44,600 bases of DNA from Chlamydiota bacterium (lineage in GTDB: Bacteria > Auribacterota > UBA3054 > B51-G9), in the NCBI GenBank assembly GCA_030596365.1, contig JAUVKG010000001.1, positions 1 through 44,600 of the forward strand, written 5' to 3'. Of this stretch, positions 8,928 to 40,596 are shown one piece after another (positions within the stretch are counted from its first letter, which is position 1; each line of letters starts with the position of its first letter). A model generated the notes under the pieces. That model did no database searches, had not been told where the DNA came from, and saw only the letters and a program-made list of their open reading frames with translations. The position numbers and the translations under genes are program-made.

Positions 8928-9366
8928 TTTCGGACACCACATTATATTTAAAATATTGAACAAAACTATCTCCACTATCCGTTTCATAAATAACAAAAGA
9001 TTCGTAATCATGAGTTTCCGCAACTGCTGATTTGTTGAACATAGTTGATAAAGCAATAATCGCAACAGCTGCTGTGGCAGTTAACCCCCACATCAGGGAT
9101 TTTCTTTTGCAAATTACAAAGCCGAAGCGATCAGCAATTCTCTCGCAGAACCCCGGTTTTTCTATTTGGTTTACTTCAGCCATAACCCGTTGACCAAGAT
9201 AATCCATTTTACTGTTATTAAATTCGCGGGAATAAGCGTTTTTAAGCAGGGATGAAATTTCTTTTTGCGCTTCAACATTTTCGCGCAGGTTTTCCGGCAT
9301 ATGAATTTCATTATTGAATTCATCTACAAATTTAGTAATTAGTTTTTTGTGGCGTATAGTTTTCAT
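8917..9366 (-). CDS. putative anti-sigma factor (single-pass membrane protein)
   Basis: Its ATG overlaps the sigma factor stop codon (ATGA at 9363-9366). It has a cytoplasmic N-terminal domain followed by one TM helix (MWGLTATAAVAIIALSTMF). The assignment rests on position only. Confidence 0.45.
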   Translation of the reverse strand: MKTIRHKKLITKFVDEFNNEIHMPENLRENVEAQKEISSLLKNAYSREFNNSKMDYLGQRVMAEVNQIEKPGFCERIADRFGFVICKRKSLMWGLTATAAVAIIALSTMFNKSAVAETHDYESFVIYETDSGDSFVQYFKYNVVSENEK

Positions 9367-16160: not shown

Positions 16161-16670
16161 TTAATTTACTTTCATCCAACTTTCCAAACTATCTGCTGAC
16201 TGGTAGCCTTGTTTTCTTGAAATAATTCCACCGTTTTTGAAGTGGAATAACGCCGGTACAGCCTGGATTGAATATTTTGCAGAAAGTTCTTTATTTTTTG
16301 AAGCATTAATTTTTAGAATAATTATTTTATTTTTATATTTTCTTGCTAAATTATAAAGTTCCGGCATAAGTTTACGGCATGGAGGGCATGCTGTCAAATA
16401 AAAGTCGGCGATCAAATTTTTATCGCCCGCATTTTTTATTGCAGTTTCAAATTCAGCGGTAGAATTGATATCTATCACATTAGTTACATCTTCCGGTGTT
16501 TTTGGAACACCGGCAAAAAGATTACTTAGCAGCAAACCGAAAACCGCTCCGAGTGCTGCGGCGCCCCACCAGGTACTTGTAAACGGGCATGTTCCCGTAC
16601 TGCATTTCCCGAAATAGCCCAATGCGCCCCCGATTGCCGCGCCGGCAATTATGAACAAGATTTTTGTCAT
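16161..16670 (-). CDS. membrane-anchored thioredoxin-family protein
   Basis: The N-terminus has a Gly-rich TM region. The C-terminal thioredoxin fold carries the CPPC active site (DFYLTACPPCRKL) and the AVPALFHFKNG motif. Confidence 0.8.
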   Translation of the reverse strand: MTKILFIIAGAAIGGALGYFGKCSTGTCPFTSTWWGAAALGAVFGLLLSNLFAGVPKTPEDVTNVIDINSTAEFETAIKNAGDKNLIADFYLTACPPCRKLMPELYNLARKYKNKIIILKINASKNKELSAKYSIQAVPALFHFKNGGIISRKQGYQSADSLESWMKVN

Positions 16671-17218
16671 ATTATCTCCTGATTTTTAAATTTATCCTCA
16701 TTCCATGTTGCAGGATTGTTAATTATATAATTTTCTATTCTAATGTAATCATTTTCATTTCGAATAATATGGTCCCAATATCGTAATTGCCACAAATGTT
16801 TTTCAAAACGTTGCCAATTTATATTTTTTACACCTCGAATATATTCGTTGGTTGTCATTGTTTTAAACCAATCCATAATATCAAATAATGATATTTTAAG
16901 AGGACGCCCACGTAGGGACGTCCCTACGTGGGCGTCCTCTTTATAATTATCCGATGTTTCAATAATACAATGGAAATGATTTGGCATTACAATATATTTG
17001 TGGCATTTCATCTTTATAAATTTATTTTCCAATTCATGATACCATTTTTCGATCATTTTCCCTGCATCATTCAATATCATTTTATCGTCAACGATTTTAC
17101 CAAACAAACATTTGTGGTTTTGTACACACGTGGTGATAAAATATAATCCCTCCAGTGAATAATCGTATCCTTTTAACCGGATTGAACAGCGGTGATGTTT
17201 TTCTGGATTGTATTTCAT
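16667..17218 (-). CDS. REP-associated tyrosine transposase-like protein (RayT / IS200-like Y1 HUH family, COG1943)
   Basis: The HUH motif MPNHFHCII is present. The C-terminal block LWQLRYWDHIIRNENDYIRIENYIINNPATW contains the catalytic-Tyr region typical of the family. The stop codon overlaps the thioredoxin start (ATGA). The ATG at 17218 lies 3 nt downstream of the queA stop at 17222. Confidence 0.8.
   Translation of the reverse strand: MKYNPEKHHRCSIRLKGYDYSLEGLYFITTCVQNHKCLFGKIVDDKMILNDAGKMIEKWYHELENKFIKMKCHKYIVMPNHFHCIIETSDNYKEDAHVGTSLRGRPLKISLFDIMDWFKTMTTNEYIRGVKNINWQRFEKHLWQLRYWDHIIRNENDYIRIENYIINNPATWNEDKFKNQEII
16898..16941. repeat. perfect 44-bp palindrome inside the RayT-like CDS
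   Basis: AAGAGGACGCCCACGTAGGGA-CG-TCCCTACGTGGGCGTCCTCTT. I verified by hand that each arm is the exact reverse complement of the other. It encodes EDAHVGTSLRGRPL. Confidence 0.95.
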
Positions 17219-23933: not shown

Positions 23934-25472
23934 TTATTCGCCTCGTATAGAAAGTAAAAATTCTGCGTTACTCTTTCTTTTTTTCATTTGCTCAATAATT
24001 GTTTCCATTTTTTCGGTTGGATTCATACCGCTAAGAGCTTTTCTTAGAAGCCATACTTTCGAAAGTTCTTCAGGGTGGAGCAGAAGTTCTTCGCGTCTTG
24101 TTCCTGAGCGCTCGATATCAATAGCCGGGAACACGCGTTTATCACTAAGTTTTCTATCGAGGTGGCACTCCATATTACCTGTTCCTTTAAATTCTTCAAA
24201 AATAATATCATCCATTTTGCTTCCGGTATCAATTAGAGCAGTTGCAATAATTGTAAGACTTCCGCCCTCTTCACAGTTTCTTGCCGAGCCGAAGAAACGT
24301 TTAGGTTTATGAAGTGCATTTGCATCAAGGCCGCCGGTAAGGATTTTTCCGCTTACAGGCTGAACGGTATTATAAGCTCTGGCAAGACGAGTAATACTAT
24401 CAAGAAGAATAACCACGTCACGTTTATGTTCAACAAGCCGCTTCGCTTTTGCGATAACCATTTCAGCAACCTGGATATGCCGCTCCGGTGGTTCATCAAA
24501 AGTAGAACTTATAACTTCACCTTTAACATTACGCTGCATATCAGTAACTTCCTCCGGTCGTTCGTCTATAAGGAGTACAATAAGAGCAGCTTCCGGAGCG
24601 TTTTTAGTTATTGCGTTAGCGACGTCCTGCATAATGATAGTTTTACCGGTACGTGGCTGAGCAACAATCAGTCCGCGTTGTCCTTTACCGATAGGAGTCA
24701 TTAAATCCATAACACGTGTTGTGATTTTGTTGGAGTCATTTTCAAGAACATAACGTTTCTCGGGATATAAAGGAGTGAGATTTTCAAATAAGATTTTATT
24801 TTTATTTTCGTCCGGAACATCGTTATTAACAGTTTCTACTTTCAAAAGAGCAACGTATTTTTCTTTATCTTTTGGCGGTCTGAATACACCTGCGATAGTA
24901 TCTCCTGTTTTTAACTCAAAGCGTCTAATTTGAGATGGTGAAACATAAATATCTTCCGGGCAAGGCAGATAATTATAATGAGGCATTCTAAGGAAGCCGA
25001 ATCCATCCGGTAGGACTTCAAGAACGCCTTCTCCGAAAATATAACCGACTTTTTTAGTTTGTGCCTTAAGAATTTCAAATATAAGATGATGACGTTTAAG
25101 ATTTCCTATATTAGGTATTTGCAAATCTCTGGCAATTTCTGACAGATCCGTCATTGTTTTTTTCTGCAATTCAATTATATTAAGTGCATTTTCACGAGCA
25201 AAAACGATAGCTGAATCTTCTCCTGCATTATTTTTCGCCGGTTTTATTTTATCATCAGTTTTTTCTTCTGTTTTGACCGAAGTTGTTTCTTCGATTACAG
25301 GCAACTCCTGCTGCACGGCATTATTATCAGCTGTTTGTTCAGTTGATTGAATATTGACAGTTGCATCAGCGTTTTCAATTTCGACTGATTTAGTTATTTT
25401 CTTAGCAGTTTTTTTTGCAACTTTTTTTGTTATTTTTTTTGCTGTTTTTTTTGTCGTCCTTTTTGTAGCCAC
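23934..25472 (-). CDS. rho: transcription termination factor Rho, with a Lys-rich N-terminal extension
   Basis: The RNA-binding domain is present ([16 protein letters not shown]). The Walker A context is [13 protein letters not shown], and RLARAYN and the C-terminal SGTRREELL are also present. The N-terminus has about 100 aa of [10 protein letters not shown] repeats followed by an acidic stretch. Confidence 0.95.
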
Positions 25473-27152: not shown

Positions 27153-29588
27153 TTATTGAGCAGAAGCAACATGGTGTGTCTGCCCTGACGGATCGATCAA
27201 TTTTGCTGTCAGGAAAACCAAGAGGTTAGACTTTTTAGACACTTCTGACTCACCTCTAAAGAATCTGCCTATTAAAGGAAGGTCGCCAAAAATAGGTGTT
27301 TTATCATGAGTTTTAATAATTTGGTCGTGCATTAATCCGCCCATAACAATTGTATCGCCATCATTAACTAAAACAGTAGTTTTTAATGATTGAACAAAGA
27401 ACTGAGGAAGTTCGTAAACATTATTTCTTGAAGATACAAACTGTCTGAAGCCGAGTAAATCAGAAACTTCCGGATTAATATCCAGTTCGATAGTTTGATT
27501 ATCTGCTTTAACAGAAGGAGTAACATACAATCTTGTACCATATTCTCTTGAATCCCATTCTTTTGGAGTAACGGCATAATCATAAACTACACTATACGCG
27601 TCACCAACATCTACATCCTGATCTTCCGCTTCTTCAATTGTTTTGTTATATCTTAAAGTAATTACGCTTTTAATTTCACCGCGCTGTCCGTTAAGGACGG
27701 TAATTTCCGGAGCAAAAATAGTATGAATACCTTCGGAATTATCTAAAGCATAGATAACTGAGCGAAATTTTGCAGGACCAATAACGCCGGAAATATCAAA
27801 CACTTTACCAAGCGGATCGTTCACGGTTTTTTCTTCCGCGTGCATTTTACCTAAATTTTGCTGATATGTGCTCAGAGTATTCAGGCTCGGAAGATAAGCA
27901 GAAGAAACAGTTGTTGTATAAGTTGAATACATATCTTGAAGCTGCTGTTCGTAAATAGGAGCCATTGTGCCGCCCTGCGAAATTACAGGTGAATAAACTT
28001 GAACCATATTTTGATAAGCTTTATATTCGGCACCTGCTTTCTGGCGTTGCTGTAAGACAACAGATTGCTGCTGTTCAATAGATGAATAAGCTGATTCGAT
28101 ATCATAAACATCTTTCTGGAGATAGGCGGGCATTTGAGGACGAAGAGCTTTTTCACGCAGGTAATCTTCGTATGGGTCGCCTGTAGAAACCAGTTCAGGT
28201 CTACTGTATGCTGAAGCGACAGGATCATAAGTATTTTCATTCATAAAGGATCTGATATATCTTAGACCCGGAGTAAGTTCTTTTTGTTTATTAGGAGCTT
28301 CAAGAAAGAATCTGTCTCCGTATTTAGAATCACGATTCCATCTATAATTTTTTGTAAGGAACTGTCTAAAAACAAGTTGATTCATATCATCGCTACGCAT
28401 AGTAACAAATCTTGCCTGGATTTTCACCTGAAAAGGAGTTTTACTGAATCTTTTAATAAATTCTTCTATTATTTTAAGATTTGCATCAGTATTTCTAACA
28501 ATAAGTCTATTGTTTCTGGTGTCGTAAGTAACGGTTGCACCTTCAGTTACCGGAATACCAATTTTCTCAAGAAGCTTAGTTACTTTCTTATTTGAGCTTC
28601 CTTCAACATCCGGCAGATCAATCATATCAAGACTACGAGACAACTGAAAGACTTTTCTTTTAAGAGTAACATTTTCTTTACTGTTAATAACAACAGCATT
28701 ATCATCTATTCGGTATGTAAGTCCTTTAACTTTACAAACATATTTAATAACTTCAATTAAAGGAATATTTGAAAGTTTAAGAGAAATAGTATCATTTTTT
28801 GATTCCGTAAGCTGTTTAATAGCTTCAGGATCAGTAACGATTGAGACTTTCGGATCACTAATTTGGAATAAATGTTCAAAAACAACAGGAAGCTGCGCAT
28901 CGACAAATTGAATTGAAGGTATTACTTGTTCAACATTCTTATCCATAAGTCTTTGTGTTAATCCACCGGCTTGACTAATGACATCTTCAATTTCTTTTTC
29001 ACGCCATGGTTTAATCAGCCATGCTTTTGAAATATCCTGCAAGCGTTCGCGTCTAACGATATCAAAATCATCAAGAGTGATTTTATTTAATTCTTCCTGA
29101 CAAGTTCTAATATATCGTCTTGCGGTAATATTATAAGGGTCTCTTTGAACGACTTCTTTGAAAGTATTTAGCGATTTTCTATATTCGCCTTCTCTATAAT
29201 ACTCGCGACCTTCGATCATGAGGACATTAATTTCCATATCGCCTTTTGAGCTTCTTTTTTGTATTTGAGTATTATAAGCGAACGCTTTTTTAACACGAGT
29301 CCAAAAGCCTTCTACATCCCCCACATCCTTAGGATTAGATTCATTAAGGTCAGTAACTTCATATCCCTGACTTTTTTCGTTCTTTTTATAAATGCTGGAC
29401 ATTTTATCCCAAAAAGAAACTGGCTCTTCATTTTGGGTTTCGCCTTTTTGCATTTCAACGTTATTAACTAAGTTCTGCTCTTTTTCAATAATATTATCAG
29501 ATTTTGCGTCATCTGCTGCAAAAGATAAAGAAACAATAAGCAGCGCCATAGTGGCAATGAAGAAATTTCGTGAGTGCAAGGTATTCAT
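27153..29588 (-). CDS. secretin-family outer-membrane channel protein (second of a tandem pair)
   Basis: A signal peptide is followed by one TPR-like unit. An N0/STN-like domain is present (IQFVDAQLPVVFEHLF...GLTYRIDDNAVVINSK), then a Secretin_N-like unit (RLIVRNTDANLKIIEEFIKRF). The C-terminal secretin motif is VLVNDGDTIVMGGLMHDQIIKTHDKTPIFGDLPLIGRFFRGESEVSKKSNLLVFLTAKLI. Confidence 0.8.
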   Translation of the reverse strand: MNTLHSRNFFIATMALLIVSLSFAADDAKSDNIIEKEQNLVNNVEMQKGETQNEEPVSFWDKMSSIYKKNEKSQGYEVTDLNESNPKDVGDVEGFWTRVKKAFAYNTQIQKRSSKGDMEINVLMIEGREYYREGEYRKSLNTFKEVVQRDPYNITARRYIRTCQEELNKITLDDFDIVRRERLQDISKAWLIKPWREKEIEDVISQAGGLTQRLMDKNVEQVIPSIQFVDAQLPVVFEHLFQISDPKVSIVTDPEAIKQLTESKNDTISLKLSNIPLIEVIKYVCKVKGLTYRIDDNAVVINSKENVTLKRKVFQLSRSLDMIDLPDVEGSSNKKVTKLLEKIGIPVTEGATVTYDTRNNRLIVRNTDANLKIIEEFIKRFSKTPFQVKIQARFVTMRSDDMNQLVFRQFLTKNYRWNRDSKYGDRFFLEAPNKQKELTPGLRYIRSFMNENTYDPVASAYSRPELVSTGDPYEDYLREKALRPQMPAYLQKDVYDIESAYSSIEQQQSVVLQQRQKAGAEYKAYQNMVQVYSPVISQGGTMAPIYEQQLQDMYSTYTTTVSSAYLPSLNTLSTYQQNLGKMHAEEKTVNDPLGKVFDISGVIGPAKFRSVIYALDNSEGIHTIFAPEITVLNGQRGEIKSVITLRYNKTIEEAEDQDVDVGDAYSVVYDYAVTPKEWDSREYGTRLYVTPSVKADNQTIELDINPEVSDLLGFRQFVSSRNNVYELPQFFVQSLKTTVLVNDGDTIVMGGLMHDQIIKTHDKTPIFGDLPLIGRFFRGESEVSKKSNLLVFLTAKLIDPSGQTHHVASAQ

Positions 29589-29639
29589 GGAACCTCCAAT
29601 TTATCGGTCATTATATAAGTTAAAAATTACTATTTGTAT

Positions 29640-32120
29640 TTACAAAGATGCTACAGTTTCATCATCAATAGATTCTTCATCAGTGTCCTGTGCCTGTTCT
29701 TCTGTTTCAGCTTTTTCGGCTTGTTTTTTGAGTTGTTTTTCACGCAGTTCTTTATAAGATTTTCCACCTGGTGTAACAATATTAGTTGTCACAAATATAA
29801 GCAGATTACGTTTATCCTGATATGAACCTTCTGCACGGAACAAACGTCCTACCAACGGTAAATCTCCCCAGAAGGGAACTTTATCATTATATTTTTTCAG
29901 TTCTTCCATTATCATTCCGCCAAGAACAATAGTTTCACCATCATTAACAACAACGTGAGTTTTTACTTCTGAAGTTTTAAATCTTGGAACAGATAATACG
30001 ATCGGCTCAATCGGCGGAATAATATTATCATTACCAACATAGACAGTTACCAGATGCGGCTCAATTTCTTCACTTACCTGAGCAGTAACTTCCATACTTA
30101 CAGTTTTGCCATTTTCGCCTATTGTTGGAGAAACAACAAGTTGAATACCAACATCTTCTTTTAAGGTACTTTCTACAGTTGCGTAACCGGCATAAGTACC
30201 TGCAACAGCATTCATGCTAAAGCCACCGAATATTCCACCGCCGCCCTGGCCTGTGAAATAAATAATAGCAGGTTTATAAACGGTATATTCATCAGGATAC
30301 ATAACTTCAGTAATTTGTCTTATACTGACACGCGACTGACCACTTACAGTAGTAATTTTAGGAGCTGAGAGAATATCTGTATCGGTCTGATTACTAATTC
30401 CATGAAATATCAAACCTATTTCAGGTGATGTTAATGCGCTTGTAAAGAAACCGATAACATTATCAGTAATCATGTTATTACCTTCACGAAGACCAACCAT
30501 GCCAAGACCTTGTTTTAAAGTGTCTGAATAACGGCTGTTTCGTCTTCCGGTTGCATATCTGCGAAGAGCTCCGGTAAGATCTGTCGGATTAATTATTCCT
30601 CCTTGCGAAACACCTGCACGATCGCTGCCACGGCTATAAATATTGAAAGGACTTTTAAGTTTCATTCCGATTGATAACTCTTCAAGGTTTTGATCACTTA
30701 TTAAAACGAAACGGGTTTGAATTTCCACCTGCAGTTGTTCTTCATCAGTACCAAGCTCTTTAATAAATCCATCGATTTCGTCAAGGATTCCCGGAGTTTG
30801 TCTAATAACTAATGTTCCGGTACTTGGTTCAAGAAATATAGTTGATCCTGCCGGCCAGCTTGGAACTGAGTTTTTAATCATACGTACGATTTCAGGTTCA
30901 ACAGATGCACTTTCGAATTCATCTCCTGTATCTTCTGTATCATCACCAAATAAATCAAATTCTCCTGTATCTTCACTTGTTGACGCTTTTTCTTCAGCTG
31001 TACTTAAAGCACGGGCAGAAACTGTCCAGAATTTTGTTTCCATTTCGCCTTCGCCTTTAGAAATAACGATGGCATACTGGTCAATAGTATAAGTTAAGCC
31101 TTGCTGTTCACAAACATACTGAATCGCCTGAAGAGCAGTAGGATTATAAAGTTCAATACTTGTAGTCTGTTCCTGCGAGGTGCCAAGGTTAACAATAATG
31201 CTTAATTCTGCAACTTCAGCGATATAATTAAGGACTTCCTGAATTTGCGCATCTTTAAAAGAAAGATTTTCAAGTTTAACATTGGCTTTCTGTATGATTG
31301 CCGCGCGGCGCTTCATTTCAGGTGAAAGTTCTTCTGTATCGTCTGCAGTTGTTGCTTCTACATATTCTTCGGGATGATGGAAAAAAGATTTTATTAAATC
31401 TTCCATTATCTGCCGACGTTCAATTCTTCTATCATCAGCAATTATTCTTCCCTGTTTTCTAATAAGTTCTTTAAGGAATCTTCTGGGCTGAGGATTTTCC
31501 GGTTCGATTTGTATAGCTTGTTTATAAGTGGCTTTTGCTTCTTCGCATCTGCTTTGAACTTCAAGGTCACGTGCCTGTTTCATATACAATCTACATTTTT
31601 CGCCATCGCTCATGCTTTCGGCAGCAATTTTGCCGATATTTTTTGAAACAGATTCTGTTATACGCTGTCTTGCAAGCAGTACGCCTTTAATTGCGACTTT
31701 ATTTTTCGGTTTATGAACGAGGGCTTCTCTGTACCATTTAGTTGCCGCTTCATAATCTCTTATAGCAATACGTGATTCTGCATATCCTATATAGACATCA
31801 AAAAGGATTGAGTTAACTTTAGATATTTTTGATTTTGCTGTAAGATTAGCCGGGTTTTTATTTAAAGCTTCTGTTAAATAATGATATGCTTTTTTATATT
31901 CACCCTGATTCATTGCTTTAATAGCCTGAGTTGTAATCTCTTCTGATTCAGCGCGCATTTCTTCTCTTTGCAGAGCTATTTGTTCAGCAAGTTGCGGAGA
32001 AAGTAATTTCGCTTTCTGTTTTAACGCTTCATCTATTGGTGACTGTGCAACTGCCAGTTGTGATAATAGCAGTAATGACAGTACGCCTCTTGAAATTGCT
32101 TTTAGGATGGGCTTTTTCAT
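29640..32120 (-). CDS. secretin-family outer-membrane channel protein with an N-terminal TPR region (first of a tandem pair)
   Basis: A signal peptide is followed by about 170 aa of TPR-like repeats. An N0/STN-like domain is present (FKDAQIQEVLNYIAEVAELSIIV...GLTYTIDQYAIVISK), then an acidic linker. The secretin C-terminus is VVNDGETIVLGGMIMEELKKYNDKVPFWGDLPLVGRLFRAEGSYQDKRNLLIFVTTNIV. Confidence 0.85.
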   Translation of the reverse strand: MKKPILKAISRGVLSLLLLSQLAVAQSPIDEALKQKAKLLSPQLAEQIALQREEMRAESEEITTQAIKAMNQGEYKKAYHYLTEALNKNPANLTAKSKISKVNSILFDVYIGYAESRIAIRDYEAATKWYREALVHKPKNKVAIKGVLLARQRITESVSKNIGKIAAESMSDGEKCRLYMKQARDLEVQSRCEEAKATYKQAIQIEPENPQPRRFLKELIRKQGRIIADDRRIERRQIMEDLIKSFFHHPEEYVEATTADDTEELSPEMKRRAAIIQKANVKLENLSFKDAQIQEVLNYIAEVAELSIIVNLGTSQEQTTSIELYNPTALQAIQYVCEQQGLTYTIDQYAIVISKGEGEMETKFWTVSARALSTAEEKASTSEDTGEFDLFGDDTEDTGDEFESASVEPEIVRMIKNSVPSWPAGSTIFLEPSTGTLVIRQTPGILDEIDGFIKELGTDEEQLQVEIQTRFVLISDQNLEELSIGMKLKSPFNIYSRGSDRAGVSQGGIINPTDLTGALRRYATGRRNSRYSDTLKQGLGMVGLREGNNMITDNVIGFFTSALTSPEIGLIFHGISNQTDTDILSAPKITTVSGQSRVSIRQITEVMYPDEYTVYKPAIIYFTGQGGGGIFGGFSMNAVAGTYAGYATVESTLKEDVGIQLVVSPTIGENGKTVSMEVTAQVSEEIEPHLVTVYVGNDNIIPPIEPIVLSVPRFKTSEVKTHVVVNDGETIVLGGMIMEELKKYNDKVPFWGDLPLVGRLFRAEGSYQDKRNLLIFVTTNIVTPGGKSYKELREKQLKKQAEKAETEEQAQDTDEESIDDETVASL

Positions 32121-32164
32121 CGTGTTTGCTCTACTCCGTGGTTATTTATTTGAGTAATTAATTA

Positions 32165-33136
32165 TTATTTAGCTTTTGCTTTATATTTTCTACCTTTAAC
32201 ATCAAATGTACATGACTTCTCATTTTCATCTAATGATTCAACTTTTGCTTTTTCTTTGTATTTAGGAAGATCAATTACATCATTTTTTCGTATGACAACC
32301 GGTTTTGCCCCGTCTTTTTTAGCCATAATTTCAGCTTCAACATAATCATAATAATTAGTTTCGCCGACGATTAAGGTAAACGGTGTGCCTGTTTTTATTT
32401 CAGTCATTGCAACTTCACTCTTATCTATATATTGCGTTGCACTAACCATACTATTCCATTTACCAACTTTTTTGAACGTTACTGTTCCTATTTCATAAAC
32501 GGGAGTAGTACCATCAGTAATTTTTTGACCTTCTTTCGTAAATTTTGTTTTTCCTTTGTATTTTAATTGAATAGACACCTTTGAAGCTTTCATAAGCATA
32601 ACAGGTCTTGACGGTCTATAAACTTTTAACAAAGTATAATCATCTAAAATAATATTAGGATCTGACGGGTCTTTAGGATTGCTGTTAAGTTTATATTCTG
32701 CAACATTGGTTATTCCGTCTTTGTCAGCATCTTCATTTGCATCATTTGGATTAGTCCAATCGAGCCCGTATTTCTGTTCCCATTTGTTATCCATTCCATC
32801 CCCGTCAGCATCTTTTTTATAATCTACAGTGGTGCCGCATTCAGGACAGATTCTGGAATATTTAGGCTGCAGTTTTTTACATTTGGGACAATACTGAAGA
32901 TCTTTATGCAAGAAAGAATTCGGGCTAAGCTTATCAGGAACTTCGCTTCCGGAAAGTTTTATAGATTCTTTATAACCTATAAGAAGGCTGCTATCTTTAA
33001 TTAGATCAGCGTTCTTGGCTTTTTCAAACGACCCGGATTCACTACCCGAAGTAAAAGAAATAGCTACTACAATAAGTGCTATAACCACAACGGCTGCCAG
33101 TAAAATCTTTTCCCAATGTTGCTTTAGTATATTCAT
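32165..33136 (-). CDS. bitopic protein with CxxC..CxxC zinc-ribbon, thrombospondin-type-3-like Asp-rich repeats and a beta-rich C-domain (PilP-like candidate)
   Basis: The TM helix is ILLAAVVVIALIVVAISF. The zinc-ribbon is CPKCKKLQPKYSRICPECG. The Asp-rich region is DADGDGMDNKWEQKYGLDWTNPNDANEDADKDGITNVAEYKLNSNPKDPSD. It sits between the PilO-like ORF and the secretins. Confidence 0.55.
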   Translation of the reverse strand: MNILKQHWEKILLAAVVVIALIVVAISFTSGSESGSFEKAKNADLIKDSSLLIGYKESIKLSGSEVPDKLSPNSFLHKDLQYCPKCKKLQPKYSRICPECGTTVDYKKDADGDGMDNKWEQKYGLDWTNPNDANEDADKDGITNVAEYKLNSNPKDPSDPNIILDDYTLLKVYRPSRPVMLMKASKVSIQLKYKGKTKFTKEGQKITDGTTPVYEIGTVTFKKVGKWNSMVSATQYIDKSEVAMTEIKTGTPFTLIVGETNYYDYVEAEIMAKKDGAKPVVIRKNDVIDLPKYKEKAKVESLDENEKSCTFDVKGRKYKAKAK

Positions 33137-33158
33137 CAGTCAATAAGTATGTTATTCG

Positions 33159-34037
33159 TTATTTTTTTTCTGATTTAATCTTGCTGTCAGCTTTGTCATC
33201 GAAATCAAGTTGAATATTATCAACAAGAAGCTGGACAGACAAAATTTCAGTTATGTCCGAAGGGTCACTAACTTCACCCATAGACTGTACTTCAAGTTTA
33301 TTAGTTATTTTGGCAAGTCTGTAAAAGTAGCCTTTATTTCTTATTCCGGCAAGTATAGTATACAAGCTTTCCGGTTTAGTTCTAAATTCAAATTGAACAG
33401 GAACAGCATCATAAAGTTCTTTTTCTTCTTCTGCTTTTTTAGATACTCTTCCTGTAGGTTCATCGTCAAACATTTCTTCATCATCATCAATGTCATCATT
33501 TGACATTCCGGCAGGATTTCTGTCTATAACAGTTATTTCTTCAACTTGCGCGTTATCAGAGCAAAGGACATCAAGTACATCTTTGATAATAACGAACTGT
33601 CGGGTTAATTTGGGTAAATCGGATGTTTTTGGAACGTTTGGACCAAGATATTCAGACCAACCGATATCTTCCGGTATTCTGATATTTTTTTCTGTGCTTA
33701 AATCTACGATTTTATCTTTAGTATCTCTGATTTCTGCTTTAATACTTGAGGGATTAAAAACAGGCAGTTTTTTCTTAGGAGCAACTTTAATCATCTCATC
33801 ATTTATGCTGTTCAGCTCTTCAAGTTTCTCCTCATAAGCTTCAACAAGTTTTTTTGTGGGTGCTCCGCCATATTTTTTTGTTATGGACTTGTATTGCGAT
33901 TTTGCGCTTTCAATGTCATCGCACGCTTCCTGCGAACTACTAACAGCGCCGCGCCACATTATAATTCCAACTATTAATAATATAACTGCTCCCGCGAGAG
34001 CAATTAAAAAGCCTTTGTTTTTGTTCAGATCAAGCAT
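33159..34037 (-). CDS. bitopic coiled-coil protein (PilO-like / Amuc_1100-like candidate)
   Basis: An N-terminal TM helix (GFLIALAGAVILLIVGIIMW) is followed by a predicted coiled coil, an acidic tract (DDIDDDEEMFDDE) and a C-terminal alpha/beta region. The assignment rests on position and topology only. Confidence 0.45.
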   Translation of the reverse strand: MLDLNKNKGFLIALAGAVILLIVGIIMWRGAVSSSQEACDDIESAKSQYKSITKKYGGAPTKKLVEAYEEKLEELNSINDEMIKVAPKKKLPVFNPSSIKAEIRDTKDKIVDLSTEKNIRIPEDIGWSEYLGPNVPKTSDLPKLTRQFVIIKDVLDVLCSDNAQVEEITVIDRNPAGMSNDDIDDDEEMFDDEPTGRVSKKAEEEKELYDAVPVQFEFRTKPESLYTILAGIRNKGYFYRLAKITNKLEVQSMGEVSDPSDITEILSVQLLVDNIQLDFDDKADSKIKSEKK

Positions 34038-34077
34038 TTTCGTCTGTTTCTCTGTTGTTGCGAATAATTCCGCATTA

Positions 34078-35784
34078 TTATCTACGTCTGGACTTGCCTT
34101 TACGATTATTAGCCTCTTTTATATCTTCCAGATCGGGTTTGTCGTTGTAATTGGTATCAAGGTCAATGTCCAACTCGAAAGTGTAGTATTTTTTCTCTTT
34201 AGTCATTCTGCGTTGAGTAAAGCCTGCAAATCCGGGGATTTTTGCAACTCTCTTCTTGCGTTTCGGCATATCGTCCATCCAATTACCATAATAACCACCA
34301 CGAAGCAGCAATCTCACCGGGCGGCTATAAAGTTCAGATTTTTCATCTACAATAATTCCCCCCGGACCGGCATTATCGGATTCTAATAATTCTCTTTCAT
34401 AAATATCGCCAAAAGTTATATTTTCAATTCCGCTAAACCACAGATTTGAAGGAATAGCTTTGCTAAAATCCTGTAATGCTTTAACATATAGATCACGACT
34501 CAAAATTACGCGATGGATTTCATCTATTTCGAGTTGTTTTTTATCGATTTGTTTTTGAATTTTACCAATTTTGCTGTTAAGTGTTGTTACTTTACTTAAT
34601 TCATTATTGGCGTTATCTGCCTGTTCTTTCACATCTGTACTTTTCATGCTTACAAGTGCAAAAAGAACAAAGAATATTGCAGCAAATATATACGCGGATG
34701 TCGCAATCCAAACTTTCTTCCGTTCCAACGACTGCTGAAGCTGAACTCCTTTCGGCAGAATATTTATTGCATAAGGAGCTAAACCGGCGCCGGCAAGCGC
34801 GCAACCAAGTGCCTGCGGATAGAGAGAAGGATTTTCTATTGTTTTATCAAATGCCTGAAAAACATTAAATTCCGATACATCTATTTTAAGACGACCGGAA
34901 AGAAAAGTTGTCAAGCCGGGAATATTACTATAACCGCCACAGACAAGAAGTTTTTGCGGTTTTTCTCCTCCCAGTTGAGATTTGAAAAACGTTAATGATC
35001 TTGTAATTTCCATTACAAGTCTTGACATTGTTGCACGCACATTTTTCAACACATCAGATTCTTCACCTGCGGGAGCAGCCAAATTGATTTGGGTAGCAAT
35101 TGTTTTTTTAGCTTCTTCTTCCGACATATTCAAGTTTTTAACAAGGGAAGAAACTATAGTTTTACCTGTAACCGGCAAAGTTCTAATCCAGATTTTTTTA
35201 CCGTCAACTATAACAAGATCACTTGCGGTAGCACCAATATTAAGAATTGCAACGGAAGTTTCCGCTTCACCGCCCGAAGAATGTAAACATACATTTCCGA
35301 TTGCCATTGCTCCGCAGTCAATTGAATTAGCTTCAAGACCTGCTTCGGCTAATATTGAGATAATATTTTCAACGACTTCTTTTTTAACTGCTGCAAGAAC
35401 GAGGTGACTCTGGTCGTTTTCTTCTCCCACAATCACGCTATCCCAATCAACGTTATTTAAAGAAACCGGAATTTGCTTATCGGCTTCCTGTTCAAGCTGA
35501 TTTTTAATATCCTCAGTTTTAATCTTCAGTGCTCTGATAAGCACTTGATCATTTGGAGCAGTGATATATAATTCGTCTTCTGGTTGGATAAGTTTTTCGC
35601 TTTTCCATGATTTCAGCACATTAACAACCGCTTCGCGCCAAGCTGAATCATCAGCATCAATTGCGAGATTTAAATCCTGCGACTTGCATTCTTTTATTCC
35701 CGGTTTATCGGAAATAATTGACAGAGCCACATATTTCAGTGTTTCATGTCCGAGATCGATACCTATTATTTTTTTGTCGGCCAC
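34078..35784 (-). CDS. PilM-PilN fusion protein (actin-like ATPase-fold PilM domain fused to a PilN-like TM/coiled-coil domain)
   Basis: The gene has a GTG start with AGGTGAGGA 7-8 nt upstream. The PilM-like actin fold shows IGIDLGHETLKYV, DCGAMAIGN, ILNIGATASDLVIV and LLVCGGYSNIPGL. An INILP motif (compare the PilN N-terminal INLLP) follows directly, then a TM helix (IATSAYIFAAIFFVLFALV) and a coiled coil. Confidence 0.8.
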   Translation of the reverse strand: MADKKIIGIDLGHETLKYVALSIISDKPGIKECKSQDLNLAIDADDSAWREAVVNVLKSWKSEKLIQPEDELYITAPNDQVLIRALKIKTEDIKNQLEQEADKQIPVSLNNVDWDSVIVGEENDQSHLVLAAVKKEVVENIISILAEAGLEANSIDCGAMAIGNVCLHSSGGEAETSVAILNIGATASDLVIVDGKKIWIRTLPVTGKTIVSSLVKNLNMSEEEAKKTIATQINLAAPAGEESDVLKNVRATMSRLVMEITRSLTFFKSQLGGEKPQKLLVCGGYSNIPGLTTFLSGRLKIDVSEFNVFQAFDKTIENPSLYPQALGCALAGAGLAPYAINILPKGVQLQQSLERKKVWIATSAYIFAAIFFVLFALVSMKSTDVKEQADNANNELSKVTTLNSKIGKIQKQIDKKQLEIDEIHRVILSRDLYVKALQDFSKAIPSNLWFSGIENITFGDIYERELLESDNAGPGGIIVDEKSELYSRPVRLLLRGGYYGNWMDDMPKRKKRVAKIPGFAGFTQRRMTKEKKYYTFELDIDLDTNYNDKPDLEDIKEANNRKGKSRRR

Positions 35785-36193
35785 TTGTATTCCTCACCTA
35801 ATATATATTAAGTATTTAAACTGATAAAGTGCTTGTATATTTACATTTTGCGCACAATTTTATACGCTTTAAATATTTAAGCACTTGCGTTATTTTGCGA
35901 GAACCCTACTTTAAAATTTACAAACTTTTTCATTAATTGTGCAATATGATACCAAAAGTATTTGCTATTGTCAAGCACTTATTATATTAATTGATACATC
36001 ATCGTTTTTATTCCACCAGCCTTGTGGTAATGGGGTATATAATTACAACAATACCTCATATATTCAACAAATCGGAAGGCCATTTATCCTTTGTCTGAAA
36101 GGTGATGATAAATCAGTCCGGGGTATACAGTATATCACCGAAAAAGAGCGTTTTCTTGCAAAAATTTGCTGCCTGATTTTCAATCAACTCGTG

Positions 36194-37288
36194 TTATATT
36201 TTGTTCTTCTTAACTTTGGCAAGTTTTTTTCTTAATTCGCTGACATCCTCTTCCTGGTTTCCGGTAACGGTAATACGCTGCGCACGGCCAAGTGCCTGTA
36301 TTACAATATCATATTGACGAGTTTCGAATGCGGTTTTAGCAATATTTATTTGTATTTCGGGATTTTCAGGCATATATGTTCCTGCCTGCCGGTATCTATG
36401 AAGTGCTATTTTATATTCTTTTTGTTCTACGGCTGTTTTCGCCCATTTAACATACAACAGAGCTATTTCTTTTTCAATTTCATTTCCTTGTTTAATTAAG
36501 TAAACTTTTTCAAGAAGATTTATTCCCTGATTGTATTTACCTTCTTCCCCGAGAAGAATTGCTTTCATGTATTGAGCATCAACAGAATTGGGTTTTAAAG
36601 CAAGAGACATTTTTATTTTAGACATCGCTATTTTATAATCATGTCTGTTGTAAGCCATTAATGCAAGATAATATAAAGCAGGCGCAGCAACAGGAGAATC
36701 AATTTCAACTTTTTCCCACGCTGCTACCGCTTCATTTGTTTTAGCCAAATATAATTTTGCCAGGCCTAGATTATACCACACAGCGCTATTATTTGAGACT
36801 ATTCCTGTTACCTGTTCGTAACAGGTTGCGGCAGAAGCATACTGTGTTAATGATGAATATCCGACTCCAAGATTGTATAAATAATCAGGATTTCTGGGAT
36901 CCATATAAACTGCGCGTTCTAAATATTTAACGGCTTCTTTTCGTCTGTTATTTCGTCCAAGAGTTACTCCAAATAAATATACAAGACGAGGATTCCTGTT
37001 ATCTACCGAAATTGCTTTTTCAAAATATGGTATGCTGTTTTCAAACTGACCTATTCGCTCATAACACGCGCCAAGATTAAGATATGCTTCCCCAAGATTA
37101 GGGTCATGCTGGACCGCCGATCTGAACGAACGTATCGCGGAACGGTAATTTTGACGTTTAACTTGTTTAATTCCTTCGCGAAAATATGTTTGAGCCTGTA
37201 TTGGAGACTGTTGAAATGTATTTGTCTGCACAGCCTGTAAATTAACTGTGGCTAAAATTAATAATATTGTTATTGTTAATTTTATCAT
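36194..37288 (-). CDS. secreted tetratricopeptide-repeat protein
   Basis: A signal peptide is followed by at least 8 TPR units (AYLNLGACYERIGQFENSIPYFEKAI, and others). It lies upstream of and co-directional with the pilus-like module, separated from it by 409 nt. Confidence 0.8.
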   Translation of the reverse strand: MIKLTITILLILATVNLQAVQTNTFQQSPIQAQTYFREGIKQVKRQNYRSAIRSFRSAVQHDPNLGEAYLNLGACYERIGQFENSIPYFEKAISVDNRNPRLVYLFGVTLGRNNRRKEAVKYLERAVYMDPRNPDYLYNLGVGYSSLTQYASAATCYEQVTGIVSNNSAVWYNLGLAKLYLAKTNEAVAAWEKVEIDSPVAAPALYYLALMAYNRHDYKIAMSKIKMSLALKPNSVDAQYMKAILLGEEGKYNQGINLLEKVYLIKQGNEIEKEIALLYVKWAKTAVEQKEYKIALHRYRQAGTYMPENPEIQINIAKTAFETRQYDIVIQALGRAQRITVTGNQEEDVSELRKKLAKVKKNKI

Positions 37289-37292
37289 TAGC

Positions 37293-37373
37293 AGGTAGTC
37301 AGGTGTCAGGTGTCAGGTGTCGGGTGTCAGGTGTCAGGTGTCGGGTGTCGGGTGTCAGGTGTCAGGTGTCAGG
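37293..37373. repeat. heptamer array GGTGTCA/GGTGTCG, about 11 units
   Basis: The array is read directly from the sequence. It begins 4 nt from the ATG of the TPR gene at 37288. Confidence 0.95.
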
Positions 37374-37378
37374 AATAT

Positions 37379-37577
37379 AATTCCATCATTCCATCAATCC
37401 ATCATTCCATCAATCCATCAATCCATCATTCCATCATTCCATCATTCCATCATTCCATCATTCCATCATTCCATCATTCCATCATTCCATCAATCCATCA
37501 TTCCATCAATCCATCATTCCATCATTCCATCATTCCATCATTCCATCAATCCATCATTCCATCAATCCATCATTCCA
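37379..37577. repeat. octamer array TCCATCAT/TCCATCAA, about 25 units
   Basis: The array is read directly from the sequence. It ends 20 nt from the 3' end of rnpB. Confidence 0.95.
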
Positions 37578-37596
37578 ATAATTCATAAATCAAATT

Positions 37597-37974
37597 GTAC
37601 TGCCCGCGGCATAAGCCGGATTCTGTCTCCCCGTTTAGGAGAGGGTAACCATTCATCTTTGCGACCTACCCGAAACATATAAACGGCAGGCGCGTCCGGA
37701 AGCGAACTTCCAATGTTTCCTATATGGTCTTGCACCGGATGGGGTTTTCCGTGCCCGCTACGTTACCGTTAGCGGCGGTGAGCTCTTACCTCGCCTTTTC
37801 ACCCTTACTCTGAATCCAGCAAGCTGAATTCAGGGCGGTATATTTTCTGTGGCACTTTCCGTCCACTCGTTAAGAGTGTCCCTTGGTTTCTCAAGGCATC
37901 CTGCCTACAGGTGTCCGGACTTTCCTCTTCGAACAAACAATGTTTGTCCAAAACGGTTACCGCGCGGGCAGTAC
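37597..37974 (-). ncRNA. rnpB: RNase P RNA, bacterial type A
   Basis: The reverse complement contains GAGGAAAGTCCGGAC (P4 5' strand), GTAAGGGTGAAAAGG, GGTAAGAGCTCACC and ACAGAATCCGGCTTAT (P4 3' strand). The terminal P1 pairing is GTACTGCCCGCG with CGCGGGCAGTAC. Confidence 0.9.
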
Positions 37975-38047
37975 AATCATTATTATTTGATTTTTTATAC
38001 AGCTATACTATTATACCGAAAACTGAGAATAAATGCTTGTATTTTAA

Positions 38048-38083
38048 GGTGTCAGGTGTCAGATGTCAGATGTCAGGTGTCAG
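38048..38083. repeat. heptamer array GGTGTCA/GATGTCA x5
   Basis: The sequence reads GGTGTCAGGTGTCAGATGTCAGATGTCAGGTGTCAG and lies upstream of rnpB. Confidence 0.9.
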
Positions 38084-38343: not shown

Positions 38344-39081
38344 TTATCCAGCTAATGCTTCATTGTTTTCTATATAAAGAATTCTGCCGCAGTTTTTGCA
38401 GGTAACTAATGCATCGCCATCATTTAATGACATAATATCGGCAATGATCTGAGCGGGTAAACTTATGTGACATCCTCCGCACATACTATTATTTGCCTGA
38501 ACGATAATTTTTGGTGCACGTTTTTCATACAAATTATTATACGCCGAAATATATTTATCATTAATTTCTTTAACGACATCTTTCCGAATAAGTTTGTATC
38601 TTTTAGATTTTCCCTGAATTTCCAACAATTGTACTTTTACTTCATCGGCTTTTTTCAGCAAATCTTTTTTAATTTCATCAACCTGCGTCTTACCTTTTTC
38701 AAGATCGACTGAATTTTCTTCGGTTTGCTGAATATGATTTGCTAAATCCTCTTCCGCTTTAACTTTTGCTTCCTGTGCAGCTTTTATTTCTTTTGAAAGT
38801 GCTTGGTAAGCGTCATTTTTTTTAACTAATTTCTGATTACCTTCAAGATGTTTTATTTTCAGTTCTGCATCTTCAACATCAAGTTCAAGTTTCTTTTTAT
38901 CAATTTCCATCTGATTTTTATTTTCCTTTTTGGAAAATTGATCGTCAGCTGCCTGCTGATAACAAATCTGCTCATCACGTAACTTCTTAATTACATTGTT
39001 TTTCTCGCGTTGTATTTCAATTATTTCTTTATCAAGATTTTGCAAGTCGAGAAGTTTTTTGAGAGTATTGTTCATAAGCAT
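38344..39081 (-). CDS. COG1579/DUF164 coiled-coil protein with C-terminal C4 zinc-ribbon
   Basis: The N-terminus is LLDLQNLDKEI, followed by a long coiled coil. The C-terminus carries CGGCHISLP...CKNCGRILY. Confidence 0.8.
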   Translation of the reverse strand: MLMNNTLKKLLDLQNLDKEIIEIQREKNNVIKKLRDEQICYQQAADDQFSKKENKNQMEIDKKKLELDVEDAELKIKHLEGNQKLVKKNDAYQALSKEIKAAQEAKVKAEEDLANHIQQTEENSVDLEKGKTQVDEIKKDLLKKADEVKVQLLEIQGKSKRYKLIRKDVVKEINDKYISAYNNLYEKRAPKIIVQANNSMCGGCHISLPAQIIADIMSLNDGDALVTCKNCGRILYIENNEALAG

Positions 39082-39152: not shown

Positions 39153-40286
39153 TTATTTTAAATTCTTATATGTTGCGTCAATTGGAAATGCTCCATTCGG
39201 TGTTATTACATCACAACCAACGACCTCCGCAAATGTTGTGTGTTTCTTGTTCAACCGTACTTTCGATACCGAATAAGAATAAAAATCACAGTTCGCAAGC
39301 GTTGTATATTGACCATATTTTTTAGTGCTGATACTTATCTTCCCTACTGCTCCTATCGGTGTTGTTGGTGATGAATCATCGCCTGCAATAACTTTTGCTC
39401 CGGAACCGCCGCGAACACAAATAACTTTTCTTACTCCGTTCGCGGAATGATTAGATCCCGAAATGATTGTTCCTCCAAGACCGTTGGACACAAACACTTT
39501 ATCAATTTTACCTTCTGTAGTAGATGTTCCCGTAATATTTCCACCATTAATTGTTGTTTTTTTGTAACGACGGCCTTTTACGATCAATTGATTAATTCCA
39601 TGAACTGCTTCGCAATTTCCAAGCTTTCCACCACGAACATTTACAGCATTAATATAACTTTCACGCCCGTCTCCGGACTGTTTTACTGATACAGTGCCTG
39701 TAGTGAAATTTGTTTTTCCGCCACTTATAGTCATAGCCGAACGTGGATAATCCACTTTTACGACATTAATTTTGCCACCTTTTACATCAACATTTACATT
39801 AGGTACATTTCCTATAGTTTGCAAACTCTGTCCGATAACTCTGACACTCATAATAGGCAGATGATGATAACGCTTCAAAAATTCTCCGCTCATTCCCGCT
39901 TTAACCGTAATGCCACCGGATTCTAATGCAGAGTCTTGCATATTAAGAAAGCCGAACGGGACTTTTGTTCCATCGGGCATATCTATTGATTTAATAGAAG
40001 TTGCTGCAAAAAGTGTATATTGTTGGAAGGCCTGCCATGATATGCCATCAAACACAATATAAAGGCGAAGGCCGTTTACATTAGGTTTATAGATTGTGAA
40101 TCGTGATTCATAACCATCCTGGTTCACCCAGAAATCTACTAATTTTGTCGGGTTGGGCGAGCCATCAGTTTTAATATCTGTTCTTGCCTGAAATACGTAA
40201 TGTTTCCAGTCTCCTGCCAAAGCAGATGACACTAGTATAATAGCTACTAACGATAGGACAATTGTTCGTGCGATTTTTGGATTCAT
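39153..40286 (-). CDS. secreted GG-repeat (beta-helix-like) protein, paralogous to the N-terminal region of ORF 2328-4667
   Basis: A signal peptide is present. Repeated motifs include VKGGKINVV, ISGGKTNF, VRGGKLGN, INGGNITG and VRGGSGAKV. Confidence 0.6.
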   Translation of the reverse strand: MNPKIARTIVLSLVAIILVSSALAGDWKHYVFQARTDIKTDGSPNPTKLVDFWVNQDGYESRFTIYKPNVNGLRLYIVFDGISWQAFQQYTLFAATSIKSIDMPDGTKVPFGFLNMQDSALESGGITVKAGMSGEFLKRYHHLPIMSVRVIGQSLQTIGNVPNVNVDVKGGKINVVKVDYPRSAMTISGGKTNFTTGTVSVKQSGDGRESYINAVNVRGGKLGNCEAVHGINQLIVKGRRYKKTTINGGNITGTSTTEGKIDKVFVSNGLGGTIISGSNHSANGVRKVICVRGGSGAKVIAGDDSSPTTPIGAVGKISISTKKYGQYTTLANCDFYSYSVSKVRLNKKHTTFAEVVGCDVITPNGAFPIDATYKNLK

Positions 40287-40383: not shown

Positions 40384-40459
40384 TGGTGGAGAATACCGGG
40401 ATTGAACCGGTGACCTCCTGGTTGCAAACCAGGCGCTCTCCCAGCTGAGCTAATTCCCC
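40384..40459 (-). tRNA. tRNA-Ala (anticodon UGC), CCA encoded
   Basis: The reverse complement is GGGGAATTAGCTCAGCTGGGAGAGCGCCTGGTTTGCAACCAGGAGGTCACCGGTTCAATCCCGGTATTCTCCACCA. It has the G3:U70 identity pair and a TGC anticodon in a 7-nt loop. Confidence 0.95.
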
Positions 40460-40519
40460 TTTTCATAAGAAAGACCTTCGCGTTGCGCATTATTGCTAAA
40501 GCAAACAACGTGTTAAGCA

Positions 40520-40596
40520 TGGTGGGCCTAGATAGACTTGAACTATCGACCTCGCGCTTATCAAGCGCGCGCTCTAACCAACTGAGCTATAGGCCC
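40520..40596 (-). tRNA. tRNA-Ile (anticodon GAU), CCA encoded
   Basis: The reverse complement is GGGCCTATAGCTCAGTTGGTTAGAGCGCGCGCTTGATAAGCGCGAGGTCGATAGTTCAAGTCTATCTAGGCCCACCA. It folds as a cloverleaf with a GAT anticodon. Confidence 0.95.

Follow-up and report, generated by a model that had tools for sequence, protein, structure and literature searches.

The best described relatives of the gene block discussed here come from Akkermansia, where the Amuc_1098-1102 proteins have drawn much study, both as "pili-like" proteins that act on the host and as products of the MUL2 locus for mucin acquisition. The block lies within 44,600 nucleotides from a "Chlamydiota bacterium" (contig JAUVKG010000001.1, positions 1 to 44,600; this whole 44.6-kb stretch is hereafter "the window"), where five genes at 27153-35784 encode a PilM-PilN-like fusion, an Amuc_1100/PilO-like protein, an Amuc_1099-like protein and two secretins. 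The module is distantly related to the pilus-like envelope machine encoded by Amuc_1098-1101 ("MUL2") in Akkermansia and occurs in an uncultured lineage resembling the Planctomycetes-Verrucomicrobia-Chlamydiae (PVC) group, and we consider it likely that the five genes are one operon for a PVC-type (Amuc_1098-1101/MUL2-type) envelope-spanning scaffold of a type IV filament machine, the superfamily that includes type IV pili (T4P) and type II secretion systems (T2SS).

The Akkermansia cluster is reported to be abundant in the outer-membrane fraction and has been called "pili-like" (PMC5332112), and Amuc_1100 is said to be structurally similar to PilO/PilN (PMC13174399; bioRxiv 10.64898/2025.12.30.696933). 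An earlier sequence-only reading of the window took the function of the Akkermansia locus to be still unclear; this no longer wholly holds, with MUL2 reported, on the basis of Akkermansia genetics, as needed for mucin acquisition (PMC13174399; bioRxiv 10.64898/2025.12.30.696933; each with reference to Davey et al. 2023). The published survey reported MUL2 from orders of the Verrucomicrobiota (PMC13174399). The second point of reference is Pseudomonas aeruginosa, where PilM clamps the N-terminus of PilN, PilN and PilO form a pair, PilP makes the connection to the secretin's N0 domain and a tetratricopeptide repeat (TPR) lipoprotein is the pilotin (PMC5285504).

The five genes and their products

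Five co-directional open reading frames (ORFs) with short spacing had been proposed from the sequence, and the ORF list returns them at exactly the same coordinates on the minus strand, with intergenic gaps of 40, 22, 44 and 51 nt. They are real genes: they are long given a genome of ~36% GC, they have ordered orthologs in other contigs (same order in at least six, at 34-95% identity), and the ratio of non-synonymous to synonymous substitution (dN/dS) is low, the values of 0.10-0.15 for each of the five genes in comparison with locus L004 indicating purifying selection. Short gaps and a candidate promoter suggest that the five are one operon. The promoter candidate is the best sigma-70-like match of the region (TTGACA-17-TATCAT with TG, 11/12; 35946-35974, minus) and stands ~160 nt upstream of the first gene; it is a consensus match only, and as promoter-like sites in the region do not outnumber those in shuffled sequence it is suggestive only. 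The predicted membrane topology of the products is consistent with the model of a pilus-type envelope scaffold.

The first gene (34078-35784, minus) encodes an Amuc_1101-family protein of 568 aa, in which a PilM domain (residues ~1-340) is followed by the single predicted transmembrane (TM) helix (360-378) and then by a periplasmic coiled coil and a PilN-like core. As had been suggested from the sequence, it is PilM-like and not FtsA-like, with 103 bits against Pfam PilM_2 (cut-off 27, E=2e-29) compared with 28 bits for FtsA, under the FtsA cut-off; against TIGR01175 it reaches 126.6 with a cut-off of 133. Among NCBIfam models it fits Amuc_1101_fam best, with a match over residues 1-461 that scores 207 bits (E=5e-61; cut-off 650). 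When 1.84 billion representative proteins were searched exhaustively, its own clade proved to have only four representatives, beyond which the score drops from 396 to 175 bits and a large set of relatives of 520-700 aa follows. In an alignment of 42 family members, 41 from that search and the window's own protein, all 42 match Amuc_1101_fam, Pfam PilN is detected in 16 and T2SSL in eight, and the family profile and a PilM-PilN fusion bearing Pfam PilN can be aligned from one end to the other (hhalign probability 100%). In the 568-aa protein, a cytoplasmic PilM actin-like domain and a periplasmic PilN-like part are thus linked covalently by one TM helix. The fusion noted in the sequence-only reading is therefore real, but it is not an addition of this module: Amuc_1101-family relatives show the PilM-TM-PilN-like build throughout (42/42 members, 520-700 aa), so that the fusion is a trait of the family and its normal architecture.

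The second gene (33159-34037, minus) encodes a bitopic Amuc_1100-family protein of 292 aa, in which an N-terminal TM helix (9-27) is accompanied by long helices, a core of ferredoxin-like type and, at 178-205, a disordered acidic loop. It matches NCBIfam Amuc_1100_fam at E=3.6e-15 (56 against a cut-off of 180). The Pfam scan gave it no family, the copy of Pfam used being without PF28028 and PF28178, and for these two families precomputed labels were taken; P0042, identical to the 292-aa protein, carries the precomputed label PF28028 (Amuc_1100). When its AlphaFold2 (AF2) model (pLDDT 77) was searched with Foldseek, the ten best matches in the PDB were all Amuc_1100 chains (6KNY, 6LAD and 6LAF; E 1e-9 to 3e-8, TM-score 0.61-0.71), with PilO of P. 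aeruginosa following (2RJZ, E 6e-4). A six-sequence profile likewise has Amuc_1100 (6KNY) as its top PDB match; direct phmmer searches of the 292-aa and 323-aa proteins against PDB sequences gave nothing meaningful. The protein is predicted by its model to have the Amuc_1100/PilO fold behind an N-terminal membrane anchor, which bears out its earlier description as PilO-like. The occurrence here too of a PilO fold together with a membrane anchor supports the view of Amuc_1100 as an inner-membrane alignment protein and not a pilin.

The third gene (32165-33136, minus) encodes a bitopic protein of 323 aa that belongs with the Amuc_1099 family. It has a TM helix at 11-29, a CxxC...CxxC zinc ribbon at 83-100, two invariant thrombospondin-type-3 (TSP3) DxDxDG calcium motifs at 109-147 and an all-beta C-terminal domain at 167-321 that is modelled confidently (AF2 pLDDT 85.5). 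The match to NCBIfam Amuc_1099_fam (E=1.4e-8, 34.7 bits) is under the cut-off of 50, which is passed by the clade orthologs P0163 and P0166 and by the more distant members P0216, P0217 and P0219. Both this protein and the 292-aa protein thus match families of pilus systems. The zinc ribbon had been regarded as something added in this module; this was mistaken, as cut-off-passing Amuc_1099-family members from Kiritimatiellae and other lineages share both the CxxC...CxxC and the DxDxDG motifs, and the ribbon, being present in such distant members, is ancestral to the family. The suggestion that the protein is PilP-like also had to be given up. It has no Pfam PilP match at E<=0.1, its N-terminus is a TM anchor with no lipobox, and the 50 Foldseek matches listed for its model include no PilP or GspC and none with E<0.05, so that a confident model without the PilP/GspC fold led us to reject this identity.

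The zinc ribbon has been lost in 13 of 43 aligned sequences, which make up one subclade of the window's lineage that includes a ruminant-gut metagenome-assembled genome (MAG). In this subclade (e.g. L006 12555-13541) three of the four zinc-ribbon cysteines are gone and the calcium-binding DxDxDG motifs are kept, therefore the ribbon is dispensable in some lineages.

The last two genes both encode secretins with a predicted signal peptide. Secretin A (29640-32120, minus; 826 aa) has several N-terminal TPR motifs, N-domains and a secretin domain (Pfam Secretin 1e-29, TPR_2 and TPR_14), whereas secretin B (27153-29588, minus; 811 aa) has at most one TPR motif, weak STN/N0 and Secretin_N matches and a secretin domain with a long insertion (Pfam Secretin 4e-34). 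Neither has an AMIN-domain match in the Pfam scan. Against NCBIfam Amuc_1098_fam they score 236 bits (1e-69) and 238 bits (2e-70) respectively, with a cut-off of 750; the generic models, GspD (120 and 123 bits) and PilQ (119 and 115 bits), are far behind. Secretin A aligns over its full length with the single secretin of locus L011, and both proteins are nearer to the secretin of L011 and L013 than to classical PilQ. They are 23-35% identical to each other over local stretches only, each has orthologs at 45-87% (49-86% for those of secretin B), and a dN/dS of 0.10 each marks them as the operon's most constrained genes. On these comparisons they are anciently diverged, equally constrained paralogs of an Amuc_1098-type secretin. 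The two genes are neighbours (51 nt apart), and their order is unchanged in all clade loci that extend to them.

Taken one by one, the best NCBIfam model of each protein is the matching Amuc model, and the fold of the 292-aa protein adds a structural match to Amuc_1100; the homology with the Akkermansia Amuc_1101/1100/1099/1098 locus, first proposed from gene order, thus holds. Family, profile and Foldseek matches also agree on a PilM/PilN/PilO-like set accompanied by secretins. The names given to orthologs by NCBI include "Amuc_1100 family pilus-like protein" and "pilus assembly protein PilM", with the secretins and the Amuc_1099-like protein left as hypothetical.

Related loci and synteny

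The whole block around and including the five genes is a segment of the core genome and not an island. It is kept in loci L001, L003, L004, L006/L007 and L008 as far as their contigs reach, down to 34-49% protein identity, and L001 sits on a contig of 4.04 Mb whose record name suggests a circular assembly. The order throughout this clade is tRNA-Ile, tRNA-Ala, a secreted 377-aa protein, a CdsZ-like zinc-ribbon protein, rnpB, a TPR protein, the five genes, exonuclease, CoaE and Rho. Members of the clade come from the ruminant gut (one MAG) and from the Guaymas Basin ("Chlamydiota bacterium" B51_G9).

What may be called canonical loci, L011 and L013 (the latter from a Kiritimatiellae MAG), have the order Amuc_1102 (PF28178/Amuc_1102_rel), PilM fusion, Amuc_1100, Amuc_1099 and one secretin of 946-1010 aa, followed in L011 by exonuclease, an intervening gene and CoaE. 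In the Akkermansiaceae the MUL2 synteny comprises the secretion channel protein, dephospho-CoA kinase and rho (PMC13174399). A linkage of secretin, (5'-3' exonuclease), coaE and rho, which in the window runs from 27153 to 23934, is common to this clade, L011 and the Akkermansiaceae MUL2 loci, an unusually deep conservation of the tie between an envelope machine and its housekeeping neighbours. No terminator-like site is seen between secretin B and the exonuclease gene. The loci described here extend the range of MUL2-type systems to Kiritimatiellae and to a PVC-like lineage.

Compared with the single-secretin loci three features are specific to the clade, namely two secretins, no Amuc_1102 gene and a conserved upstream TPR gene. 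The duplicated secretin of the sequence-only reading is accordingly a real difference, with two paralogs here and one in L011 and L013; the lack of Amuc_1102 had escaped that reading. Amuc_1102 was sought in several ways: the 409-nt gap upstream of the operon has no minus-strand ORF >39 aa, the L011 and L013 sequences, used as tblastn queries, match neither the window nor the clade loci, Amuc_1102_rel has no match among the unannotated window ORFs and PF28178 is not listed in L001, L006 or L008. On the far side of that gap lies the gene for a secreted TPR protein of 364 aa (36194-37288, minus), recognised by Pfam TPR matches and without a lipobox cysteine. It stands directly upstream in every clade locus (36-91% identity) and is missing from L011 and L013, where Amuc_1102 holds this position. 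NCBIfam PilW scores 70.8 bits against it (cut-off 154), third among generic TPR matches, and the protein is a possible accessory (pilotin- or PilF/PilW-like) and a putative member of the module.

Absence of partner genes nearby

The window was reported to lack a prepilin, a PilB/GspE-type ATPase, a PilC/GspF platform protein and a prepilin peptidase, and this is what was found. A search of all six frames of the 44.6 kb for the prepilin motif G[FMILVAY][STA][LIVMF][IVLMTP]E gave no match, and PilB/GspE, PilC/GspF and PilD are absent from the 26 other ORFs of >=150 aa that were scanned with Pfam (of 27, one antisense ORF inside the operon being left out); three scanned ORFs that had no Pfam family had no NCBIfam match either. 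The Pfam families that were found in the window include 5'-3' exonuclease, CoaE, Rho, PIN-TRAM, radical SAM enzymes, signal peptidase and SpoIID, and further QueA, thioredoxin, PolX, GshA and FabF. The Pfam scans and the location of rnpB (37595-37972, minus, upstream of the TPR gene) also agree with the flanks as first described, with exonuclease, coaE and rho on the downstream side and, upstream, a TPR protein and rnpB. No pilin, ATPase or platform gene is found in the same transcription unit, the operon being bounded by housekeeping genes both here and in relatives with longer flanks. The window appears to be an entire contig, as the longest contig recorded for the identical proteins P0042 and P0155 is 44600.

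Where the sequence-only reading goes astray is in treating this orphan position as notable, since it is usual for operons of the pilMNOPQ type. In P. aeruginosa pilMNOPQ is a single self-contained operon (PMC5285504), and locus L005 (P0036, 622 aa) is a classical pilMNOPQ operon among housekeeping genes. P0036 had been a candidate for an Akkermansia-like Amuc_1101; as its locus is classical pilMNOPQ it was rejected as such and kept as a control. Furthermore, the prepilin motif is found neither near canonical loci L011 and L013 nor near clade loci L001, L003, L004, L006 and L008, no motor, platform or pilin gene occurs within ~10 kb of the module in relatives, and in Akkermansia other pilus proteins are encoded at distant loci (bioRxiv 10.64898/2025.12.30.696933). 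Because pilMNOPQ stands alone, Amuc-type loci come without a prepilin and the Akkermansia pilus proteins are distant, the lack of a nearby pilin, ATPase or platform gene is uninformative.

A possible mechanism and its alternatives

If the module works as the PilMNOPQ network does (PMC5285504), the fused PilM-PilN-like protein and the Amuc_1100-like protein would pair as an inner-membrane alignment unit, the 323-aa protein would take the PilP/GspC position and link this pair to the N0 domain of the outer-membrane secretin ring or rings, and the PilM domain would couple the scaffold to a motor ATPase and platform that, like any fibre subunits, would be encoded elsewhere in the genome. By analogy with Akkermansia MUL2, the machine is probably used to attach to surfaces or to acquire glycans or other macromolecules.

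Several points weigh against such a scaffold of a type IV filament machine. All five scores are under the NCBI equivalog cut-offs (207/650, 56/180, 34.7/50, and 236 and 238/750), which makes this a distant branch to which function is not confidently transferred. The Kiritimatiellae locus L013 is also under the cut-offs for Amuc_1098, 1100 and 1101, therefore these cut-offs define close Akkermansia-like equivalogs and not the wider family. The operon itself is drawn only from short gaps and a consensus promoter match, and the bridging role of the 323-aa protein would follow from gene position, there being no similarity to PilP or GspC in sequence or fold. Akkermansia has two genes with the names MUL2A and MUL2B; one of these, Amuc_1102, is lacking here, so that the machine may work differently. 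Finally, no motor, platform, peptidase or pilin gene is seen in the 44.6-kb window.

One alternative, although it is rather unlikely, is that the module is the GspL-GspM-GspC-GspD half of a T2SS-like exporter, for example of glycan-degrading enzymes, driven by a pseudopilus piston with no surface pilus and no uptake. GspL is a single chain made up of an actin-like domain in the cytoplasm, one TM helix and a ferredoxin-like domain in the periplasm, and this is the architecture of the 568-aa protein; eight of the 42 Amuc_1101-family members match Pfam T2SSL, the Amuc_1100 homolog of L013 weakly matches GspM (1.7e-6) and GspD is marginally ahead of PilQ as the generic model for both secretins. 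However, the window's own 568-aa protein matches PilM_2 and not T2SSL, PilN is found in twice as many family members as T2SSL (16 against eight), and the fold of the 292-aa protein matches PilO and not GspM among solved structures. T2SS genes, moreover, are normally in one operon that includes gspE, gspF and gspG-K, and no GspE, GspF or pseudopilin gene is present in the window or in the flanks of its relatives. Operation in the manner of T4P and in the manner of T2SS cannot be told apart from sequence alone.

It is doubtful, to about the same degree as the T2SS-like exporter, that only one of the two secretins belongs to this machine and that the other serves a different system encoded elsewhere or no longer acts as a channel, being for example a ring in the periplasm or an anchor for an adhesin. 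The low identity of the paralogs, their different N-terminal regions (several TPR motifs in A, at most one in B) and the single secretin of the canonical loci would fit such a division; the 51-nt spacing of the two genes, an order that is fixed in every clade locus reaching there, an equally strong constraint (dN/dS ~0.10) and the closeness of each to the Amuc_1098 type and not to PilQ all speak against it. Less probable again is that a MUL2-type machine has been rebuilt in this clade, with the pilin-like Amuc_1102 lost and the two secretins forming a heteromeric or stacked channel, as a filament-less or otherwise unusual conduit for the uptake of macromolecules. A search of the searchable literature found no description of tandem or heteromeric secretins, and a channel of this kind would, if true, be one described there for no secretin system.

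One proposal of the sequence-only reading was a trans-envelope conduit that works without a classical pilus motor; taken in its strong form, as a self-sufficient conduit with neither filament nor ATPase motor, for example a gated channel for the uptake of glycans or DNA, it now seems improbable. In its favour are the lack of motor, platform and pilin genes in the window and within ~10 kb in relatives, the absence of the pilin-like Amuc_1102 from the clade, and the reported link of Akkermansia MUL2 to mucin uptake (PMC13174399). The missing linkage weighs little, however, when classical pilMNOPQ is also unlinked (PMC5285504, L005), and the PilM domain, which couples to the motor and platform in known systems, is kept under purifying selection (dN/dS 0.125). 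No motor-independent machine built from a secretin and PilMNO is known. That the module is a decaying, functionless remnant of a lost pilus system, as the lack of partner genes nearby and of Amuc_1102 might suggest, is effectively refuted by five intact ORFs, an order kept down to 34-49% identity and dN/dS values of 0.10-0.15.

Other features of the window

The secreted 377-aa neighbour (39153-40286, minus) has a signal peptide and is matched by no Pfam or NCBIfam family and by no PDB sequence; it was considered as a possible disguised Amuc_1102, for which the NCBIfam and PDB sequence searches gave no support. Relatives have a gene of similar size at the same position, with similarity detectable only in L003 and L004 and weakly in L001. 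Next to it a 245-aa C4 zinc-ribbon coiled-coil protein (38344-39081, minus), which is syntenic throughout the clade, is matched best, among NCBIfam models, by CdsZ, a regulator of chlamydiae (87 bits, cut-off 275; E=1e-24), a weak hint from sequence of a PVC or Chlamydiota-like affiliation.

An adjacent pair of genes for tRNA-Ile(GAT) and tRNA-Ala(TGC) at 40384-40596 (minus) has no rRNA gene nearby. In most bacteria this pair occupies the 16S-23S spacer. The corresponding position in L001, L003, L004, L006 and L008 also has a matching pair of neighbouring tRNA genes (the anticodons being unchecked in these relatives), a hint that the rRNA genes of this lineage are unlinked.

Tandem arrays lie on both sides of rnpB, at 37292-37577 and 38047-38083, and consist of (CAGGTGT)x11.6, (ATTCCATC)x24.8 and (AGGTGTC)x5.3; the 7-mers CAGGTGT and AGGTGTC are rotations of one unit. 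The arrays are missing from the matching intergenic regions of L003 and L004, relatives at 81-83%, and are therefore specific to this genome, or possibly an artefact of assembly. They produce spurious ORFs with a repeated "SIIPSFHH".

Elsewhere in the window, Rho (23934-25472, minus) has an N-terminal extension of ~100 residues, rich in Lys, Thr and Ala, before its Rho_N domain. Between queA and the thioredoxin gene a 183-aa ORF (16667-17218, minus) has a weak match to an IS200-like Y1 transposase (E=6e-5, at the Pfam cut-off), and two ORFs, at 2328-4667 (plus, 779 aa) and 8274-9065 (minus, 263 aa), belong to no Pfam or NCBIfam family.

Comparison with known systems

The module is found in an exonuclease-coaE-rho setting both in Kiritimatiellae and in a lineage of the ruminant gut and marine sediment, and this shared core-genome setting across lineages indicates that the PVC envelope machine is old and has been passed down vertically, and that it is no adaptation to the gut. 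A version with two secretins and no Amuc_1102 furthermore amounts to a natural experiment on which parts of the machine are dispensable and on how its outer-membrane channel is built.

From the T2SS the module differs in having no gspE, gspF or gspG-K in the operon, in a match to PilM_2 and not T2SSL and in a 323-aa protein without similarity to GspC or its HR domain, whilst the fused architecture of GspL (actin-like domain, TM helix, periplasmic domain) is that of the 568-aa protein, GspM is a PilO homolog and GspD a secretin. With the PilMNOPQ system of type IVa pili (P. aeruginosa, M. xanthus) it has in common a stand-alone operon, a PilM actin-like domain, PilN- and PilO-like bitopic proteins, a terminal secretin and the overall topology, and its putative TPR helper recalls the PilF/PilW pilotin. 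Unlike that system it has PilM and PilN in one polypeptide, a third protein that is not PilP-like and has no lipobox, and two secretins, with TPR repeats and no AMIN-domain match.

Akkermansia MUL2 has the same gene order, from the PilM-PilN-like fusion through the Amuc_1100/PilO-like protein and the Amuc_1099-like protein with its zinc ribbon and TSP3 motifs to a TPR-bearing secretin, and the same downstream coaE-rho synteny (PMC13174399). The differences from it are the two secretins, the lack of Amuc_1102 (MUL2A), the upstream secreted TPR gene, scores below the equivalog level and a host outside the Verrucomicrobiales. The module is therefore a divergent version of a known system, and what is new in it is the pair of secretins, together with the lost Amuc_1102 and the adjacent TPR gene.

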